The notes beneath the pieces are model-generated. The model was not told the origin of the DNA. It did no database searches and saw only the letters and a program-made list of their open reading frames with translations. From the NCBI GenBank assembly GCA_965223855.1, contig CBDCXM010000009.1, positions 1,504,001 to 1,568,000 of the forward strand: a DNA stretch of 64,000 nucleotides. The letters are read 5' to 3'. Shown here one piece after another: positions 34,653 through 40,310 of the stretch; position 1 is the first letter of the stretch; each line of letters opens with the position of its first letter. Source of the DNA: Candidatus Multivoradales bacterium (GTDB lineage: Bacteria; Acidobacteriota; Thermoanaerobaculia; Multivoradales; JAHEKO01). A program made the position numbers and the translations under genes.

Positions 34653-34784
34653 GGGCTGGCGCGGCGCAAGCTCGACCGCGAGCGCAGCGCCCGGATACGC
34701 AGTAGATTCAGTGACATACGGTCTTCCTGAGTAGTCCGTTGAACGGTGCAGCGGCGTGAGAAGTTCGGGCTAGACTGGCGACCG

Positions 34785-35594
34785 ATGGACTTCGACTTCC
34801 GGGAATGGCTCCATCTCCTGACGCGCTGGTTCCACGTCGTCGTCGGGATCATGTGGATCGGCCAGACGTACCTCTTCGGTTGGATGGACAGCAACCTCGA
34901 AGAGGCCGAGGAAGACGACGAGATCGAAGGCCGCCTGTGGATGATCCACAGCGGCGGCTTCTACCGTGTCGAGAAGCAGAAGCTGGCGCCCCGTAAGCTG
35001 CCCGCGGTGCTGCATTGGTTCAAGTGGGAGGCGGGGCTCACGTGGCTCAGCGGCTTCCTGCTGCTGTGGGTCGTCTACTACACCGGCGGCGCGCTTCTCG
35101 AGTACGGCTCGGAGATGAGTGTCGCCGCAGGCACCGCGATCGGCATCGGCGTCCTCGTCTTCGGCTGGCTCGCCTACGATCTGCTGTGGATGTCACCGCT
35201 GGGTCGCAAGGGTGTCGGCGTGCCGATCTGCTTCGCCGCCGTCGTCGCCCTCGCCTGGGCCCTCACCCAGGTGCTGAGCGGAAGAGCCGCCTTCATCCAC
35301 ATCGGCGCCCTCTTCGGCACCATCATGGCGGCCAACGTCTTCATGCGCATCCTGCCCGGCCAGCGCCAGCTCGTCGCCGCCGCCGAGGCCGGCACCCCTC
35401 CGGATGCGACGCTGGCCGAGCGTGCCAAGCAGCGCTCCACCCACAACACCTACATGTCGGTGCCGCTGATCTTCATCATGATCAGCAGCCATTTCCCGAC
35501 CAGCTCCTACGGGAGCAAGTACAACTGGGTGATGCTGGGGGTGTTCGTGCTGCTGGGGTGGGCGGGGCGGAAGGTGATGACGCTTCTGCGGTAG
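34785..35594 (+). CDS. puuD: Urate hydroxylase PuuD-like membrane protein (no cytochrome c domain)
   Basis: RWFHVVVGIMWIG, WMIHSGGFY, HWFKWEA, GTIMAANV, RSTHNTY, FIMISSHFP; no CxxCH. Confidence 0.85.
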   Translation: MDFDFREWLHLLTRWFHVVVGIMWIGQTYLFGWMDSNLEEAEEDDEIEGRLWMIHSGGFYRVEKQKLAPRKLPAVLHWFKWEAGLTWLSGFLLLWVVYYTGGALLEYGSEMSVAAGTAIGIGVLVFGWLAYDLLWMSPLGRKGVGVPICFAAVVALAWALTQVLSGRAAFIHIGALFGTIMAANVFMRILPGQRQLVAAAEAGTPPDATLAERAKQRSTHNTYMSVPLIFIMISSHFPTSSYGSKYNWVMLGVFVLLGWAGRKVMTLLR

Positions 35595-35688: not shown

Positions 35689-36558
35689 TCAGGAGGATGC
35701 GGGCCGGTGAAGAGCGCGTGTCCAGGACGGACCCAACAACGGATGTTCGGGCGGGAGCTGCTGCAACAGTCGAACGTACTCCGTCTTCGCATGGTCGCCG
35801 AGGTGTGTGCGCGAGGAGCTGGGACGCCAGGTGTTTCGCCAGTCGCCGAGCTGTCGCCTCCAGAATCCGGGGTTCTCGACGAGAGTCTCTCTGGTGTCGA
35901 ACCATATCCGCCGCCCGGCGTGGTGCCACATGGGGGCCTTCAGCAGCCTGGGGATGAAGTCGGCCTTGTTCTGGAAGAGGAGAGTGCGATTGCCGTGGAT
36001 CTCGTTGTAGGCGGCCGAGAACTTCCCGTTTCCGACTGCCGGAGCGCCGAAGGTACAGACGCTGGCGATCCGAGAAGCCGGCTGCATCGAAGCCCACAGC
36101 ACCGCCAGAGCTCCTCCCAGGCTATGCCCCGTTGCGTACACGGGAGTGTCGCGGTCTCCGAGGGCTGTTTCGATGTCTTCCACCAGAGGCTCCAGAGCTC
36201 CAAGGAAGCCGACGTGGATTCGTCGTCCGTCCTCCGTCCGCCGGGTAGCGATCCTGGCGTCCGTGAGGATGTCCTCCAGAACCCCGGGTTCCGTCCCGCG
36301 GAAGGCAAGAAAGCTGTGCGCTTCACTTCGGATCACGAGAGCTTGAGTGCCCTGCTTGTCCAGGAAGGTGAAGGCGCCCTCAGGAGCCCCCATGCGCGCC
36401 TTCTCTTCGTCCTCGTAGGCGAGGGTCGAGAGTTGCGCGAGCAGTACCGCCTGAGAGGGCAAGGGACTCTTCACGGTCAGGATGTTACCCCTTGCGTTCG
36501 TCGCTGGTATTTGTTCGTTGTGAGCGACAGGTGAGTGCGCTGTCTCAGCCGAGGTCAT
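35689..36558 (-). CDS. Lipase class 3 family protein
   Basis: AFRGTE, IHVGF, TGHSLGGALA, TFGAP, DFIPRL. Start uncertain. Confidence 0.88.
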   Translation of the reverse strand: MTSAETAHSPVAHNEQIPATNARGNILTVKSPLPSQAVLLAQLSTLAYEDEEKARMGAPEGAFTFLDKQGTQALVIRSEAHSFLAFRGTEPGVLEDILTDARIATRRTEDGRRIHVGFLGALEPLVEDIETALGDRDTPVYATGHSLGGALAVLWASMQPASRIASVCTFGAPAVGNGKFSAAYNEIHGNRTLLFQNKADFIPRLLKAPMWHHAGRRIWFDTRETLVENPGFWRRQLGDWRNTWRPSSSRTHLGDHAKTEYVRLLQQLPPEHPLLGPSWTRALHRPASS

Positions 36559-36643
36559 CGTCAGGACCTGTCTTCGGGTGCTGACCATCTTCGGGTGCCG
36601 GCCCCTTCTCCGGATCTCCTTCGAGTGTGGGAACACCGGAAAC

Positions 36644-36672
36644 TTGACACGGGGGTCTCCTATCCGCATACT
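36644..36672 (+). promoter_or_regulatory. sigma70-type promoter
   Basis: TTGACA (36644-36649), 17-nt spacer, CATACT (36667-36672). Confidence 0.75.
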
Positions 36673-36701
36673 GCGCGGCCCTCGTGACGAGGAGTCAAGA
36701 A

Positions 36702-36827
36702 ATGCGCGTGTCCATCAGGCAACGAAACACTTACACCCCGGCCTCGACGGCCGGGCATGGCCTTTTGGCGTTCGATTCAGCGAATCGGTACACGCCGATC
36801 GCGCCCTTGAAGAGGGAAACCAGCTAG
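36702..36827 (+). CDS. Putative 41-aa leader peptide (MRVSIRQRNTYTPASTAGHGLLAFDSANRYTPIAPLKRETS)
   Basis: RBS GAGGAG at 36689-36694, ATG 36702, TAG 36825-36827; lies between the promoter and the terminator. Confidence 0.55.
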   Translation: MRVSIRQRNTYTPASTAGHGLLAFDSANRYTPIAPLKRETS

Positions 36828-36859
36828 AACCGACACTCGCAGATCCAAAGACTGAGTCG

Positions 36860-36891
36860 AGCCTTCTGGGACCTCCCAGAAGGCTTTTTTT
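36860..36891 (+). terminator. Intrinsic terminator / candidate attenuator
   Basis: AGCCTTCTGGGA-CC-TCCCAGAAGGCT followed by a T run. Confidence 0.85.
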
Positions 36892-36925
36892 GTGCTGAGG
36901 ATCGAAGTGAATGAGAGAAGTGAAA

Positions 36926-37025
36926 CCGACAAACTGATACCACCGGGCCGGCGGTGTGCGAACCTCACGTGATCGTGATCGGTGCCGCACATTCCGTGCA
37001 ACGGGTTCTGACGAAGGTGGGTCGG
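36926..37025 (+). ncRNA. Putative structured RNA element
   Basis: Nested pairings CCGAC/GTCGG, CCACC/GGTGG, TGTGCG/CGCACA, TCACG/CGTGA and a short GCAA-capped hairpin. Confidence 0.4.
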
Positions 37026-37029
37026 GCCT

Positions 37030-37094
37030 GGAGGCGTGGCATAGGTAGCCAGACCCCTCGAGGGTCGTGCGGGTTCGAGTCCCGCCGTCTCCCA
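37030..37094 (+). ncRNA. Shortened tRNA-like RNA 1
   Basis: Acceptor GGAGGCG/CGTCTCC; D-like TGGC..GCCA; stem GACCC/GGGTC with a 5-nt loop; T arm GCGGG-TTCGAGT-CCCGC. Confidence 0.75.
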
Positions 37095-37096
37095 AG

Positions 37097-37170
37097 AACT
37101 GGCTAGCTCAGACTGGTAGAGCACCGAGCCGTAACTCGGGTGTCGGGGGTTCGAATCCCCCGCCAGGACC
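37097..37170 (+). ncRNA. tRNA-like RNA 2 (non-canonical)
   Basis: TAGCTCAGACTGGTAGAGCA D arm; CCGAG/CTCGG stem with 6-nt loop CCGTAA; GGGGG-TTCGAAT-CCCCC T arm; only 5 bp of acceptor (CTGGC/GCCAG); no CCA. Confidence 0.8.
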
Positions 37171-37200
37171 TCTGTCAAGGGTCTCTTCAGTGCCGACCGA

Positions 37201-37600
37201 GCCGGGAGCCTGCTGCGGAACCGCTGCCGAAGCCGGACGCGTCGAGCGCTTGCCCCTTCCACTGGGGCGTTTGCCCGGCGAGCCGGCGGAGGAGCGCGCA
37301 ACGGCGCCTTGCAGTGCCGCGAGCAGCCCGAGGCGACGCCTCTGTTCCGCCCTACGTTCGACCGGCCGCCCATCGGGCGGCCACCGGGCGGTGGGCCGAA
37401 AGGGGTCTCCCTCGGGCTCGGGCGGCACTCCGCTACCGGGCGCGTGGCGGTAGCCGCGGGTGGGCTCCCGGCGAGGTCATTTCTCGCCGCGTTCGCCCAG
37501 CAGTCCGAGCCGGTGTTCATGTTGAACGTTTGACGTCGCCGCAGAGGCGGTGGCGTTCGCCCGGCGAGCGAGGGAGCTGACGTCGCCCTCGGTCTCGGGC
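37201..37600 (+). ncRNA. Putative large multi-helix RNA upstream of slipin
   Basis: Nested long-range pairs 37201-37210/37463-37472, 37313-37320/37422-37429, 37325-37333/37410-37418, plus local hairpins; no convincing ORF. Confidence 0.55.
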
Positions 37601-37655
37601 CCGTAGTGAAGCAGCAGTAGCAAGTGTCAGTGCAGTAAGAGAGGAGGTAACAACC

Positions 37656-38756
37656 ATGTTCCGTTGGATCAAGATTCGTGAGTACGAGCGCGGTCTCCTG
37701 TACCGAGACCGGGTGTTCCGGGAGTGCCTGAAGCCGGGGCGCCACTGGATCTTCGATCCGTTCCTGAAGGCGCGGGTCGAGCGGGTTTCGGTGCGCGACG
37801 TCTTCCTCGAGTCGAGCGACCTGGACGTGATCGTCCGCAGTGGGTCGCTCGGCGAAGAGGCGGTCGTGCTCGATCTCGAGGACCACGAGCGCGCGCTGGT
37901 CTGGGTGAACGGTCGTTTCTCGACTGTCCTGCGCCGTGGCCTGTGGGCGGTCTGGACCGTCTTCCACGAGGTCCGTACCGAGGTGATCGACGCCCGCAAG
38001 GTGCGTTTCGACCACCCGGCGCTCGCCGCCGTGCTGGCCGAGGAGAGCTCGCTGCGTCATCTGGACCCGGTGCAGGTCGAGTCGGGCTCGGTGGGCCTGG
38101 TGATGGTGAACGGCCGTCACGAGGCGACGCTCGAGCCGGGCCGCTATGCCCTGTGGAAGGACGTCGCGCGAGTGGGTGTCACGCACGTGAGTCTGCGAGA
38201 GCAGGCGATCGACGTCGCCGGTCAGGAGATCATGACCGCCGACAAGGTCACCCTGCGGCTCAACGCCGTCGTCGTCTTCCGGGTCGTCGATCCGGTGCAG
38301 GCGGTGACGTCGGTCGAGTCGTACGAGCAGGCTCTCTACCGTGAGGCTCAGCTGGCGCTGCGTCGAGTGATCGGCGCTCGCGAGCTCGACGAGCTCCTGT
38401 CCGAGAAGGACGAGGTGGCCGGCGAGCTCGAGGAGCTGGTCCGGCGCCGTGCCGGTGAGCTGGGCCTCCAGGTCGGCTCGCTCGGCATTCGCGACGTCAT
38501 CCTGCCGGGTGACATGAAGGCGATCCTCAACCGGGTGACCGAGGCTCAGAAGGCTGCCGAGGCCGACCTCATCACCCGTCGCGAGGAGACCGCCTCCATG
38601 CGTTCGCAGGCCAACACCGCCCGAATCTTCGACTCGAACCCCGCGCTGATGCGTCTGCGTGAACTCGAGGTTCTCGAGAAGGTGGCGGACAAGGCCGATC
38701 TCACGGTGGTGCTGGGCGAGGGTGGCCTCGCCGAGAGAGTCACCAAGCTGCTGTGA
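37656..38756 (+). CDS. Slipin family (SPFH/band-7) protein
   Basis: RBS GAGGAGG; repeated ERGLL..PG.HW units; QEIMTADKVTLRLN, LYREAQLALR, RDVILPGDMK, RREETASMRSQANTA, NPALMRLRELE. Confidence 0.92.
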   Translation: MFRWIKIREYERGLLYRDRVFRECLKPGRHWIFDPFLKARVERVSVRDVFLESSDLDVIVRSGSLGEEAVVLDLEDHERALVWVNGRFSTVLRRGLWAVWTVFHEVRTEVIDARKVRFDHPALAAVLAEESSLRHLDPVQVESGSVGLVMVNGRHEATLEPGRYALWKDVARVGVTHVSLREQAIDVAGQEIMTADKVTLRLNAVVVFRVVDPVQAVTSVESYEQALYREAQLALRRVIGARELDELLSEKDEVAGELEELVRRRAGELGLQVGSLGIRDVILPGDMKAILNRVTEAQKAAEADLITRREETASMRSQANTARIFDSNPALMRLRELEVLEKVADKADLTVVLGEGGLAERVTKLL

Positions 38757-38763
38757 GGTTTCA

Positions 38764-38794
38764 CGGGCCGTCCCTTCGGGGGCGGCCCGATTTT
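38764..38794 (+). terminator. Intrinsic terminator after slipin
   Basis: CGGGCCGTCCC-TTCG-GGGGCGGCCCG then ATTTT. Confidence 0.75.
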
Positions 38795-38969
38795 CTGATG
38801 CCGCGCATCGGTGGTCGAGCGTCGATGCGATCCCTCGACGGGCCGCCTCTCCTGACCCCCGAATTCCCCGATTCGCCGACTTGGTTGCCTGGGAGTCTAG
38901 AAAGCGTGGAATCTACTGTGACGGGTAGGGGTGGGCATCAAGCGCGGCTGGGCGGGTAGTATCAGTTTC

Positions 38970-40310
38970 ATGTATCGCCGGATCCTCCTGCGACGCCCTC
39001 TTGCCGTGGTCTCGGTGCTGGGGATGTATCTGGCCCCGCCTGCCGTCGCGGGAGCTGGTACCGTGGCAAGGCCGGTGGGCCCGGAGTTCCAGGTGAATTC
39101 GTACACGACTGGAAGCCAGAGAGACGTAGATATCGGCTCAGATGGAGCTGGAGGGCTGGTGGTAGTTTGGGCAAGTGACGGCTCAGCCGGATCAGATAGC
39201 GACTGGCTGAGTATCCAGGCGCGGCGCTACGACGCTGACGGCTTTCCCGTCGGCGACCAGTTCCAGGTGAACACCTACACCACGTCCGCTCAGACCGCAC
39301 CCTCTGTGAGCGCCAACGGTGGGGGTGGTTTCGTAGTCGTTTGGGATGACCTGGCCGGAGTCAAAGCTCGGGTCTACGACTCGAGCGGATCTCCTCTGGG
39401 AGACGAGTTCGTGGTGAATACCTATGCCGGGGGAAGCCTTCTCACCAGGGCGACTGTGGGCCCGTACATGGGAGGGTTCGTCGTGGCGTGGGAGGGGATC
39501 GGATCACCAGGGACCGATACCGACTTCTTCAGTATTCAGGCCAGAAACTTCCTCCCCGACGGCTCCCCGATCGGAGATCAGTTTCAGGTCAACACCTACA
39601 CGACCGGTGGCCAGGCCTTCGCGAACGTCTTTCTTGACGATGGTGGCTATTGGTTGACCTGGTCGAGCGAAGGGTCGTTCGGGTCGGACTCGAGCGGCCA
39701 TAGCGTCCAGGGGCAGCGCTTTGGTTCGAACGGGAGTCCGATCGGGAACCAGTTCCAGGTGAACGCGTATACCGTGGGCGATCAGAGGAACTCGTCGCTA
39801 TCACGGCTGGGTGAGAACGTCGTGGTCGTGTGGCGAGGACTGGGCGGTGCTGGGGACGACACCGAGGACTGGAGCGCCCAGGGGCGGGTGCTGGACTCTG
39901 AGGGAGTTCCCGTAGGTCAGGAGTTCCAAGTCAACAGTTACACGACATCTTGGCAGGGCTACCCGGTCGCTGCTGAGGCAAGAGGCGGCGTAGCCGTGGT
40001 CTGGACCAGCGTCGGCTCCTGGGGCAGCGACTCAGATCTCTGGAGCATTCAGGGGCAGCTCTACCGTCAAGACGGAGTGCCGAGCGGAAATCAGTTTCAG
40101 GTCAACACCTCCACCCTGGGGACTCAAACACATCCGGCTCTGGCAACCTTGGCCGACGATGGTTTCTTGGTCGTCTGGGCAAGCGAGAGTTCGGGCGCGG
40201 ACGACACCGACTCGTGGAGTATCCAGGGTCAGCGCTTCGAAGGGGTCGGAATCTTCGCCGATGGCTTTGAGACGGGCGACTCCTCATCGTGGTCGACCTC
40301 AGTGCCCTGA
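38970..40310 (+). CDS. Secreted repeat protein (FQVNxYT repeats) with C-terminal IFADGFETGD tail
   Basis: Seven (E/Q)F(Q/V)VN(S/T/A) repeats, each followed by VVVW-like and IQ(A/G)(R/Q)-like strands; probable beta-propeller. Confidence 0.8.
   Translation: MYRRILLRRPLAVVSVLGMYLAPPAVAGAGTVARPVGPEFQVNSYTTGSQRDVDIGSDGAGGLVVVWASDGSAGSDSDWLSIQARRYDADGFPVGDQFQVNTYTTSAQTAPSVSANGGGGFVVVWDDLAGVKARVYDSSGSPLGDEFVVNTYAGGSLLTRATVGPYMGGFVVAWEGIGSPGTDTDFFSIQARNFLPDGSPIGDQFQVNTYTTGGQAFANVFLDDGGYWLTWSSEGSFGSDSSGHSVQGQRFGSNGSPIGNQFQVNAYTVGDQRNSSLSRLGENVVVVWRGLGGAGDDTEDWSAQGRVLDSEGVPVGQEFQVNSYTTSWQGYPVAAEARGGVAVVWTSVGSWGSDSDLWSIQGQLYRQDGVPSGNQFQVNTSTLGTQTHPALATLADDGFLVVWASESSGADDTDSWSIQGQRFEGVGIFADGFETGDSSSWSTSVP

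Follow-up and report, generated by a model that had tools for sequence, protein, structure and literature searches.

A compact slipin operon with a candidate leader-ORF attenuator, tRNA-like RNAs and two further structured RNA domains in a Candidatus Multivoradales bacterium

Organization of the slipin locus

The DNA analyzed here is a 64,000-nt stretch of the genome of Candidatus Multivoradales bacterium (GCA_965223855.1, contig CBDCXM010000009.1, positions 1,504,001-1,568,000 of the forward strand), referred to below as the window and numbered from its first letter. Its subject is a locus at 36644-38797 in which a gene for a slipin, a protein of the Band_7 family, is preceded by a short leader open reading frame (ORF), an intrinsic terminator and a run of structured RNA that includes two tRNA look-alikes (Table 1). 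The parts of this locus, their order, their conservation and the RNA structures are established, order and conservation having been observed across the related loci, and we consider it probable that the whole is an operon in which an attenuator gates the production of tRNA mimics and slipin. An original prediction, made from the letters of the window, had listed a promoter, a 41-codon ORF, a terminator, non-coding RNA with two defective cloverleaves, a slipin gene and a second terminator, and each of these was found exactly where it had been placed.

Table 1. Features of the slipin locus, in window coordinates (SD, Shine-Dalgarno sequence)
Feature	Position	Strand	Basis or remark
Sigma-70-like promoter TTGACA-17 nt-CATACT	36644..36672	+	10/12 consensus positions
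SD GAGGAG	36689-36694	+	Precedes leader ATG
Leader ORF, 41 codons	ATG 36702, TAG 36825-36827	+	Peptide ends ...KRETS
Intrinsic terminator/attenuator hairpin, 12 bp + U tract	36859..36893	+	Fold; hairpin sequence family
Block A, ~96-nt structured RNA domain	36934..37029	+	Covariance model R1
tRNA-like element 1, optional insert	37030..37092	+	Fold
tRNA-like element 2, band-7-associated tRNA-like RNA	37097..37170	+	ARAGORN, Rfam, fold
Structured spacer / slipin 5' leader	37171..37655	+	Alignments, RNAalifold; SD AGAGGAGG at 37640-37647
Slipin gene, 366 aa	37656..38756	+	Pfam Band_7
Operon-end intrinsic terminator	38764..38797	+	11-bp stem (38764-38789), 10 GC pairs, then ATTTTCTGAT

The promoter was the sole sigma-70-like match in 36300-39100, where shuffled sequences gave a mean of 0.1, and the leader ORF behind it had a GC content at third codon positions (GC3) of 0.78. 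The stem of the hairpin that follows spans 36859-36886, with 12 pairs and then seven T, and forms a strong intrinsic terminator. A promoter, an SD-led short ORF and an intrinsic terminator standing before a structural gene make up the layout of an attenuator, and this layout was present in the window. Because no second promoter-like site and no + strand terminator-like site was found between 36893 and 38764, the segment 36644-38797 is likely to be one transcription unit, a minimal member of a widespread operon type; at ~2.15 kb and with one protein gene, the window copy was the smallest complete version.

GC content by codon position was 0.75/0.40/0.87 in the slipin gene, and the ~760 nt of 36892-37655 had no consistent periodicity. 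This bore out the description of the region as non-coding RNA, a description that had passed over block A, a separate domain at 36934-37029. A hidden protein gene in 37171-37655 was considered and rejected, the segment having no codon periodicity, no conserved ORF of at least 90 aa, and conserved islands separated by gaps of variable length. PADLOC assigned neither the leader peptide nor the slipin to a defence family. Only tRNA reached the Rfam threshold in the window, and the sub-threshold matches (YrlA, RcsR1, tmRNA and sbrA) were taken as chance or as generic tRNA arms and terminators.

The slipin module in related genomes

Relatives of the slipin were collected by tblastn from one genome per species of bacteria and archaea, and the best 80 of 433 confirmed relatives were analyzed. 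With the window itself and 10 loci from a search of related genomes they gave a set of 91 loci (three duplicate pairs included), each with up to ~3 kb of flanking DNA on either side; counts for the hairpin, the tRNA-like element and RtcB refer to these 91 loci, and the block A model search covered 87 sources.

Full-length slipin orthologues (52-70% identity) were present in 10 of 60 related genomes and in none of four genomes of the same genus. The best 80 relatives came from Acidobacteriota (Thermoanaerobaculia and Vicinamibacteria), Planctomycetota, and single metagenome-assembled genomes (MAGs) of Desulfobacterota, Hydrogenedentota and Victivallales. The expectation that the order leader, terminator and RNA would be kept upstream of slipin homologues was upheld, with the hairpin in 40/91 loci, block A in 82/87 sources and the tRNA-like element in 85/91 loci; judged from these sequences, conservation of the module is strong but patchy.

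In Planctomycetota the slipin module formed the 3' end of long tRNA arrays with 10-34 tRNA genes (L093, which is genome locus L116 on the reverse strand; L097, which is L117; L039, L059, L064, L070, L083, L084, L094, L098, L099, L103 and L105), the uninspected arrays running beyond the ~3 kb flank. A homologous ORF lay inside the tRNA arrays of 16 loci; the L103 copy (1099-1689) is an HNH gene by Pfam (E 1.7e-15), and the other copies of this HNH-type ORF are in L039, L050, L064, L069, L070, L073, L075, L083, L084, L085, L089, L093, L094, L101 and L105. With its two tRNA-like elements only, the window falls short of a long array, taken as at least 10 tandem tRNA genes. Additional cargo was also seen at L042, where a YkuK-type RNase H-like gene (L042:2042-2503; PF04308, E 5.6e-28) sits between hairpin and block A and would therefore come under the same control as the RNAs and slipin. 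A homologous ORF occupies that place in L045 and in L087; of the three, the L042 ORF alone was scanned with Pfam.

A leader ORF and terminator family upstream of slipin

The window hairpin belongs to a sequence family, RGCCTTCYGGG...CCCRGAAGGCY-Tn, which was searched for with a profile in place of a strict regular expression that missed most copies. The profile matched in 40 of the 91 slipin loci (37 unique), 400-1220 nt upstream of slipin, and the window hairpin was its only significant + strand match in the whole genome. A TTGACN box lay 120-300 nt 5' of the hairpin in 33 of the 37 unique leaders, and an SD-led ORF ended 20-42 nt before it at 35 of the 37 loci; ORFs of at least 11 codons were found at 33/37, the two remaining called ORFs having only two codons each. 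Of the 35 called leader ORFs, 16 had their stop codon at 27-28 nt from the hairpin, 23 used TAG as the stop, and 22 finished in Pro. The peptides had in common a loose M-[KR]-x-Q-[AT]-F start, a tail rich in G/E that ends in Pro, and little more.

The RNA around the leader stop is in many loci ACCCUAGGAAGGCUUU, a near copy of the terminator 3' arm and therefore able to pair with the 5' arm. In about 16 of 37 leaders the segment that pairs best with the terminator 5' arm was the one across the leader stop codon, and this duplex stood clearly above shuffled controls (z of -2 or lower) in just 7 of 37. At L038 the alternative helix formed in the fold from which the terminator 3' arm had been removed.

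Two array heads carried the same kind of unit. At L097 a hairpin of the same family, with TTGACT, AAGGAG and a 53-codon ORF, lay just before the first of 22 tRNA genes, and the head of the array in the L093 genome (34 tRNA genes) had TATAAT, GAGGTGA and a 31-codon ORF, with a terminator unrelated in sequence. In both, leader and terminator keep to the head of the array, away from slipin, which is where an element controlling the entire transcript should be.

We also considered that promoter, small ORF and terminator might be an independent gene for a small protein or small RNA (sRNA), with the RNAs and slipin expressed constitutively from an unrecognised promoter of their own. The poor sequence conservation of the peptides and the weak antiterminator of the window would suit such a gene, and the gap of ~45 nt between terminator and block A could hold a non-canonical promoter. 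It sits badly with the constant position of the leader unit, immediately before the module at 37 unique loci, with the removal of that unit to the heads of the 22- and 34-tRNA arrays in L097 and the L093 genome, and with the stop codon being held 27-28 nt from the hairpin in so many ORFs. The lack of a sigma-70-like site between terminator and slipin in the window also speaks against it, as does the RNase H-like insert after the hairpin in L042, L045 and L087, which is placed as for a shared operon head, and we regard an independent upstream gene as quite improbable.

Several observations weigh against gating by attenuation. The antiterminator duplex of the window was weak (-10.4 kcal/mol, z = 0.2 versus shuffles), its fold without the 3' arm gave ~6 pairs around the stop codon (AGC-UAG), and its leader ends in Ser-TAG instead of Pro-TAG. 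The hairpin-and-leader family was detected in just 40 of the 91 loci, the exact hairpin pattern had zero matches in five Planctomycetota genomes, and only two array heads (L097 and the L093 genome) were inspected. In addition, the conservation of CCC-TAG could stem from RNA pairing alone, without any need for slow termination. The suggestion that attenuation stands in for RtcR control was strengthened by the comparative conservation of the leader and by the failure to find RtcR in the genome, and strained by the weak antiterminator of the window itself; as far as the comparison of leaders goes, gating by attenuation appears well supported.

Block A, a structured RNA domain found beside slipin

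Nucleotide searches with the upstream region of the window returned two conserved blocks, the second cloverleaf and ~36934-37020. For the latter, an alignment of 20 copies was given a hand-written structure, from which the covariance model R1 was made. R1 produced 83 full-length matches in 82 of the 87 sources. Every match shared the strand of slipin and immediately preceded the tRNA-like element, and the 64-kb window had a single one (36934-37029); R1 found none in L035, L053, L091 and L092, whose upstream DNA is <350 nt each, or in L021. A helix, P1, closes the structure over a long irregular stem, whose inner part RNAalifold found as well. In alignment A3, standard pairs filled 92.7% of cells versus 75.0% after shuffling, and compensatory changes occurred in 24 of 29 pairs (396 cells versus 111 in shuffles), while in slid controls, with partners moved by 1-3 columns, pairing was 29-45%; A3 was fitted to model R1, which tilts these counts in favour of the structure, but the excess is large. 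A GC/AU swap at one of the pairs (35 versus 44 sequences) was already plain in the MAFFT alignment.

The window genome contains one copy of block A. Across 61 related whole genomes there were 6 matches, each 0.5-0.7 kb upstream of a slipin ORF, and 0 matches in the 47 of these genomes without a slipin match; this search used stricter filters, under which weaker copies of the 87-source search were lost. Rfam searches of 11 related loci at E up to 0.1 gave no family over either block A or the spacer. At L100, block A and the tRNA-like element were present as two tandem copies (L100:2036-2198 and L100:5267-5427). Behind the second copy another slipin-like ORF begins, and its match is limited to the first 40 residues. 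By its covariation and its distribution, block A is a new RNA domain linked exclusively to slipin.

The tRNA-like elements

The second cloverleaf of the window, 37097-37170, was labelled 'tRNA-???' by ARAGORN and matched the Rfam tRNA family (RF00005) with 38.2 bits, above the gathering score of 29 bits, over model positions 3-68 only. The genome had 45 tRNA matches, and this one scored lowest, the remaining 44 reaching at least 55 bits. With 5 bp in the acceptor stem and 6 nt in the anticodon loop, the fold of this cloverleaf falls short of the 7 bp and 7 nt of a canonical tRNA. The element before it, 37030-37092, has a 7-bp acceptor stem, a 5-nt anticodon loop and a canonical T arm, and lacks nucleotides 8/9; ARAGORN made no call for it. 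A weak YrlA match (26.3 bits, gathering 69) ran over the T arm of this first element and the D arm of the next. An extra tRNA or tRNA-like element at the position of the first was seen in a few aligned loci only (L014, L039, L040 and L071).

A profile of the second cloverleaf found an element upstream of slipin in 85 of the 91 loci, and most loci had a single profile-matching element even where 10-25 ordinary tRNA genes lay alongside. The relatives' elements were 73-89% identical in nucleotide sequence to the window copy, and their D and T arms were nearly invariant. Of 81 unique copies, 63 had an acceptor stem of 3-5 bp and two had one of 7 bp, and 48 had a 7-nt anticodon loop; among these 48, U33 occurred in 30, and 21 different triplets stood at the anticodon position. 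Because of the short acceptor stem and the lack of a fixed anticodon in the family, the element is best read as a tRNA-shaped RNA for which charging and decoding would hardly be possible. Its features agree with a second-hand description of the 'band-7-associated tRNA' that Burroughs and Aravind (2016) predicted.

The structured spacer

The spacer that separates the tRNA-like element from the slipin start is 230-490 nt long, and in it conserved islands alternate with stretches of variable length, the islands of the window being near 37221-37239, 37291-37325 and 37423-37479. RNAalifold on 18 relatives with a short spacer proposed five helices, three of them long-range. Pairing was possible in 94.4% of cells versus 87.9% in shuffles and 33-48% in slid controls, and compensatory change was seen in 10 of 23 pairs; the 18 sequences that yielded the structure also served to test it, which counts against it, and covariation on these relatives gives it moderate support.

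This long RNA could be a purely cis-acting 5' leader, a large riboregulator of slipin translation or stability that responds to a ligand, a tRNA or a protein. Conserved structure does continue unbroken up to the slipin SD, no terminator separates the RNAs from the gene, and block A was never found away from slipin in the window genome or the 61 related genomes. Against a cis-acting leader stand the tRNA-like element itself, which retains the full elbow of D and T arms in the manner of free-standing tRNA mimics, the Planctomycetota copies, which end arrays of ordinary tRNAs that get processed into separate molecules, and L100, where the RNA pair is present twice. A riboregulator as the sole explanation appears unlikely; the two readings are compatible, and RNA that regulates in cis does not exclude the ribonucleoprotein particle considered below.

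The slipin protein

The slipin matched Pfam Band_7 (PF01145) with E 4.9e-35 over residues 140-311 and the PDB stomatin PH1511 by sequence with E 2.8e-28, and in NCBIfam its HflK/FloT matches stayed below threshold. An AlphaFold2 model built with 39 orthologues had a mean predicted local distance difference test (pLDDT) score of 86.6 and comprised three tandem five-stranded beta units (residues 2-45, 69-112 and 136-179), an SPFH alpha/beta domain (183-282) and a long helix (284-346). The SPFH part superposed on Pyrococcus PH1511 stomatin with Z 18.1, a root-mean-square deviation (rmsd) of 1.1 Å over 104 residues and 47% identity. The third beta unit matched the beta-rich N-terminal half of stomatin and HflK, and the first two are extra copies standing where membrane SPFH proteins carry their anchor. 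The model had no membrane segment or N-terminal anchor, residues 1-180 forming beta strands only with pLDDT ~90 (no dedicated predictor was run).

The only structural match along the whole length was the major vault protein, MVP (Foldseek, 402-467 columns, E 6e-11 to 3e-8; MVP Z range 10-11; VIA: Z 10.7, model residues 3-327 versus MVP 322-690), at 12-14% identity. We take the likeness to MVP as one of common layout, which would imply neither descent nor a cage; the SPFH-plus-long-helix layout of the model is also that of the cage-forming stomatin, HflK/C and MVP. On the model, the slipin appears to be a soluble, repeat-extended SPFH/stomatin-type protein and is a likely RNA partner.

These results bear on another account of the locus, in which the cloverleaves would be decayed tRNA genes or remnants of integration sites without function and the slipin an ordinary membrane scaffold. 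Both cloverleaves of the window are indeed defective, and the module is patchy, with orthologues in so few of the related genomes (10/60) and none in the genus (0/4). Decay is difficult to reconcile with a distinct element family in 85 of 91 loci across phyla, at 73-89% identity to the window copy, whose defects are common traits of the family, and an ordinary membrane scaffold with a protein model that has no membrane segment. We consider this account very improbable indeed.

RNA-repair genes and flanking genes

RtcB was encoded within ~3 kb on either side of slipin in 4 of the 91 loci, so that RtcB adjacency is a minority arrangement; the proteins of L079 and L090 were 61-63% identical to the RtcB of the window genome, and those of L037 (confirmed by Pfam) and L060 were a distant paralogue. 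The window genome has its own RtcB gene at contig C9:1019037-1020110, ~520 kb from the slipin locus, and is for that reason not ligase-free. No gene for TROVE or RtcR was detected in the genome, whose completeness is 92%. The original prediction of a module without RtcB or Ro60, uncoupled from any ligase, is therefore right for the locus only, and has to be amended for the genome, in which TROVE was not detected and rtcB lies elsewhere. The RtcB gene of the window genome carries no hairpin of the slipin family, the only significant + strand profile match being at the slipin locus.

Synteny within the genus was tried as a guide to the borders of the module and was of no use, the flanking lipase and repeat-protein genes not being kept in place. 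Upstream of the module are a Urate_ox_N (PF06181) membrane-protein gene (34746-35594, + strand) and a class-3 lipase-like gene (35689-36669, - strand) transcribed away from it, neither of which is kept beside slipin in relatives. Downstream, 38931-40310 is a 459-aa ORF with a signal-like start and repeats (...FQVNTYTTG...) and without a Pfam match; the repeat gave 21 and 40 matching stretches in two genomes of the same genus.

A proposed mechanism

We propose that a constitutive promoter drives a short translated leader ORF whose stop would be fixed ~27-31 nt before the intrinsic terminator. As long as ribosomes keep pace with the polymerase, a ribosome at the end of the leader would cover the RNA of the stop codon, the terminator would form and transcription would stop. 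In many relatives this stop-codon RNA is a copy of the terminator 3' arm and could pair with the 5' arm, and when leader translation lags, with ribosomes stalled, damaged or scarce or tRNAs in short supply, the segment would be left free to build an antiterminator, with read-through as the outcome. C-terminal proline slows translation termination, and a proline at the end of the leader would lengthen the dwell of the ribosome at the stop, its CCC codon also being part of the pairing segment. The read-through transcript would contain block A, one or two non-decoding tRNA look-alikes, the large structured leader and the slipin mRNA, and the slipin, probably soluble and oligomerising, could assemble with these cis-encoded RNAs into a cytoplasmic particle during translation stress or RNA-damage stress. 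We infer that leader translation controls the terminator, and that efficient translation would mean termination and lag read-through; binding of the cis-encoded RNAs by slipin, the role of the module in stress, and the function as decoys or scaffolds that the original prediction gave to the tRNA mimics are likewise proposals.

A bolder version of this mechanism takes the structural likeness to MVP further: the soluble SPFH protein, with its three beta-repeat units, SPFH shoulder and long helix, might form a vault-like cytoplasmic cage loaded with block A, the tRNA mimic, whose anticodon loop differs between lineages, and the leader, the whole being switched on by a sensor of ribosome speed. 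We give this version a small chance of being correct. If it were true, the tRNA mimic could draw tRNA-cutting toxins to itself as a bait or decoy, or serve as a handle by which broken tRNAs reach repair enzymes, and in Planctomycetota a complete reserve set of tRNAs would be set free by the switch as well.

Relation to known systems

Among the closest known systems is the Band-7 and tRNA-like RNA repair system predicted in silico by Burroughs and Aravind in 2016, as described in bioRxiv 10.1101/312249. The slipin loci share with it an SPFH gene with a tRNA-like RNA gene directly upstream on the same strand, and a link to RNA repair in a minority of relatives (RtcB in 4/91 loci, the RNase H-like ORFs of L042, L045 and L087). 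In the window the SPFH domain and the upstream tRNA-like gene are both present, and the third feature of that system, an adjacent RtcB ligase, is absent. A literature search for slipin, band 7 or SPFH together with tRNA arrays, leader peptides or an RNA motif returned no printed link between them; in the literature searched, the gate of leader ORF and terminator, block A, the structured spacer, the soluble protein form with triple beta repeat and the fusion of module and array were all undescribed, with the reservation that the 2016 paper and its supplements may cover some of them. On our reading of the sequences, the window locus would be a stand-alone, attenuator-gated form of the known Band-7/tRNA-like pairing, with two undescribed RNA domains.

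A precedent for the gate is the leader peptide PA5471.1 of P. aeruginosa, which is described as attenuating the RtcB-like armZ and responding to ribosome-targeting drugs (PMC12057347). According to that account, a short translated leader and a terminator again stand before a gene related to RNA repair, and read-through is proposed to follow the stalling of ribosomes by ribosome-targeting antibiotics. The sequences are unrelated, and the cargo there is an anti-repressor of an efflux pump regulator, whereas here it consists of structured RNAs and an SPFH protein.

The arrays have their own counterparts. In the Anabaena trcR mutant the slipin-family gene alr0740, rtcB and the trn operon of 26 tRNAs are reported to be all derepressed, and TrcR repression to be relieved under translational stress (PMC10272220). 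Long tRNA arrays are likewise described as chloramphenicol-induced and linked to HNH and rtcB genes (PMC8421152), and the HNH gene linked to cyanobacterial L-arrays has its parallel in the HNH gene embedded in the Planctomycetota module arrays. Anabaena offers a case in which translational stress acts jointly on a tRNA array, rtcB and a slipin-family gene; the control there is ascribed to the repressor TrcR, and a leader peptide is proposed here, while the window has no array and two tRNA mimics only. The main texts of PMC10272220 and PMC8421152 give no physical link between slipin and arrays, and the terms band 7, SPFH, slipin and stomatin have 0 occurrences in the main text of PMC8421152.

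As a scaffold protein with small structured RNAs, one of them a tRNA-like module, the proposed particle resembles both Ro60 (TROVE) with Y RNA/YrlA and the vault (MVP, vault RNA and TEP1), and it shares with MVP the beta repeats, an SPFH-like shoulder and a long helix. It differs from Ro60-YrlA in that the YrlA match of the window stayed far below the gathering score (26.3 versus 69 bits) and no TROVE gene was found, and from the vault in that the slipin SPFH domain is far nearer to stomatin, with Z 18 and 47% identity, identity to MVP being 12-14%. From the membrane-bound SPFH scaffolds stomatin and HflK, the slipin would be set apart by the missing N-terminal membrane anchor of its model.

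The pairing of Band-7 with b7a-tRNA has been a prediction since 2016, and the stress response of tRNA arrays is known, with accessory genes that are not understood. The slipin loci join the two into one compact unit, to which they add a compact attenuator that would sense ribosomes, block A, which occurs beside slipin only, and a large structured leader, and the window copy is a convenient unit to clone.

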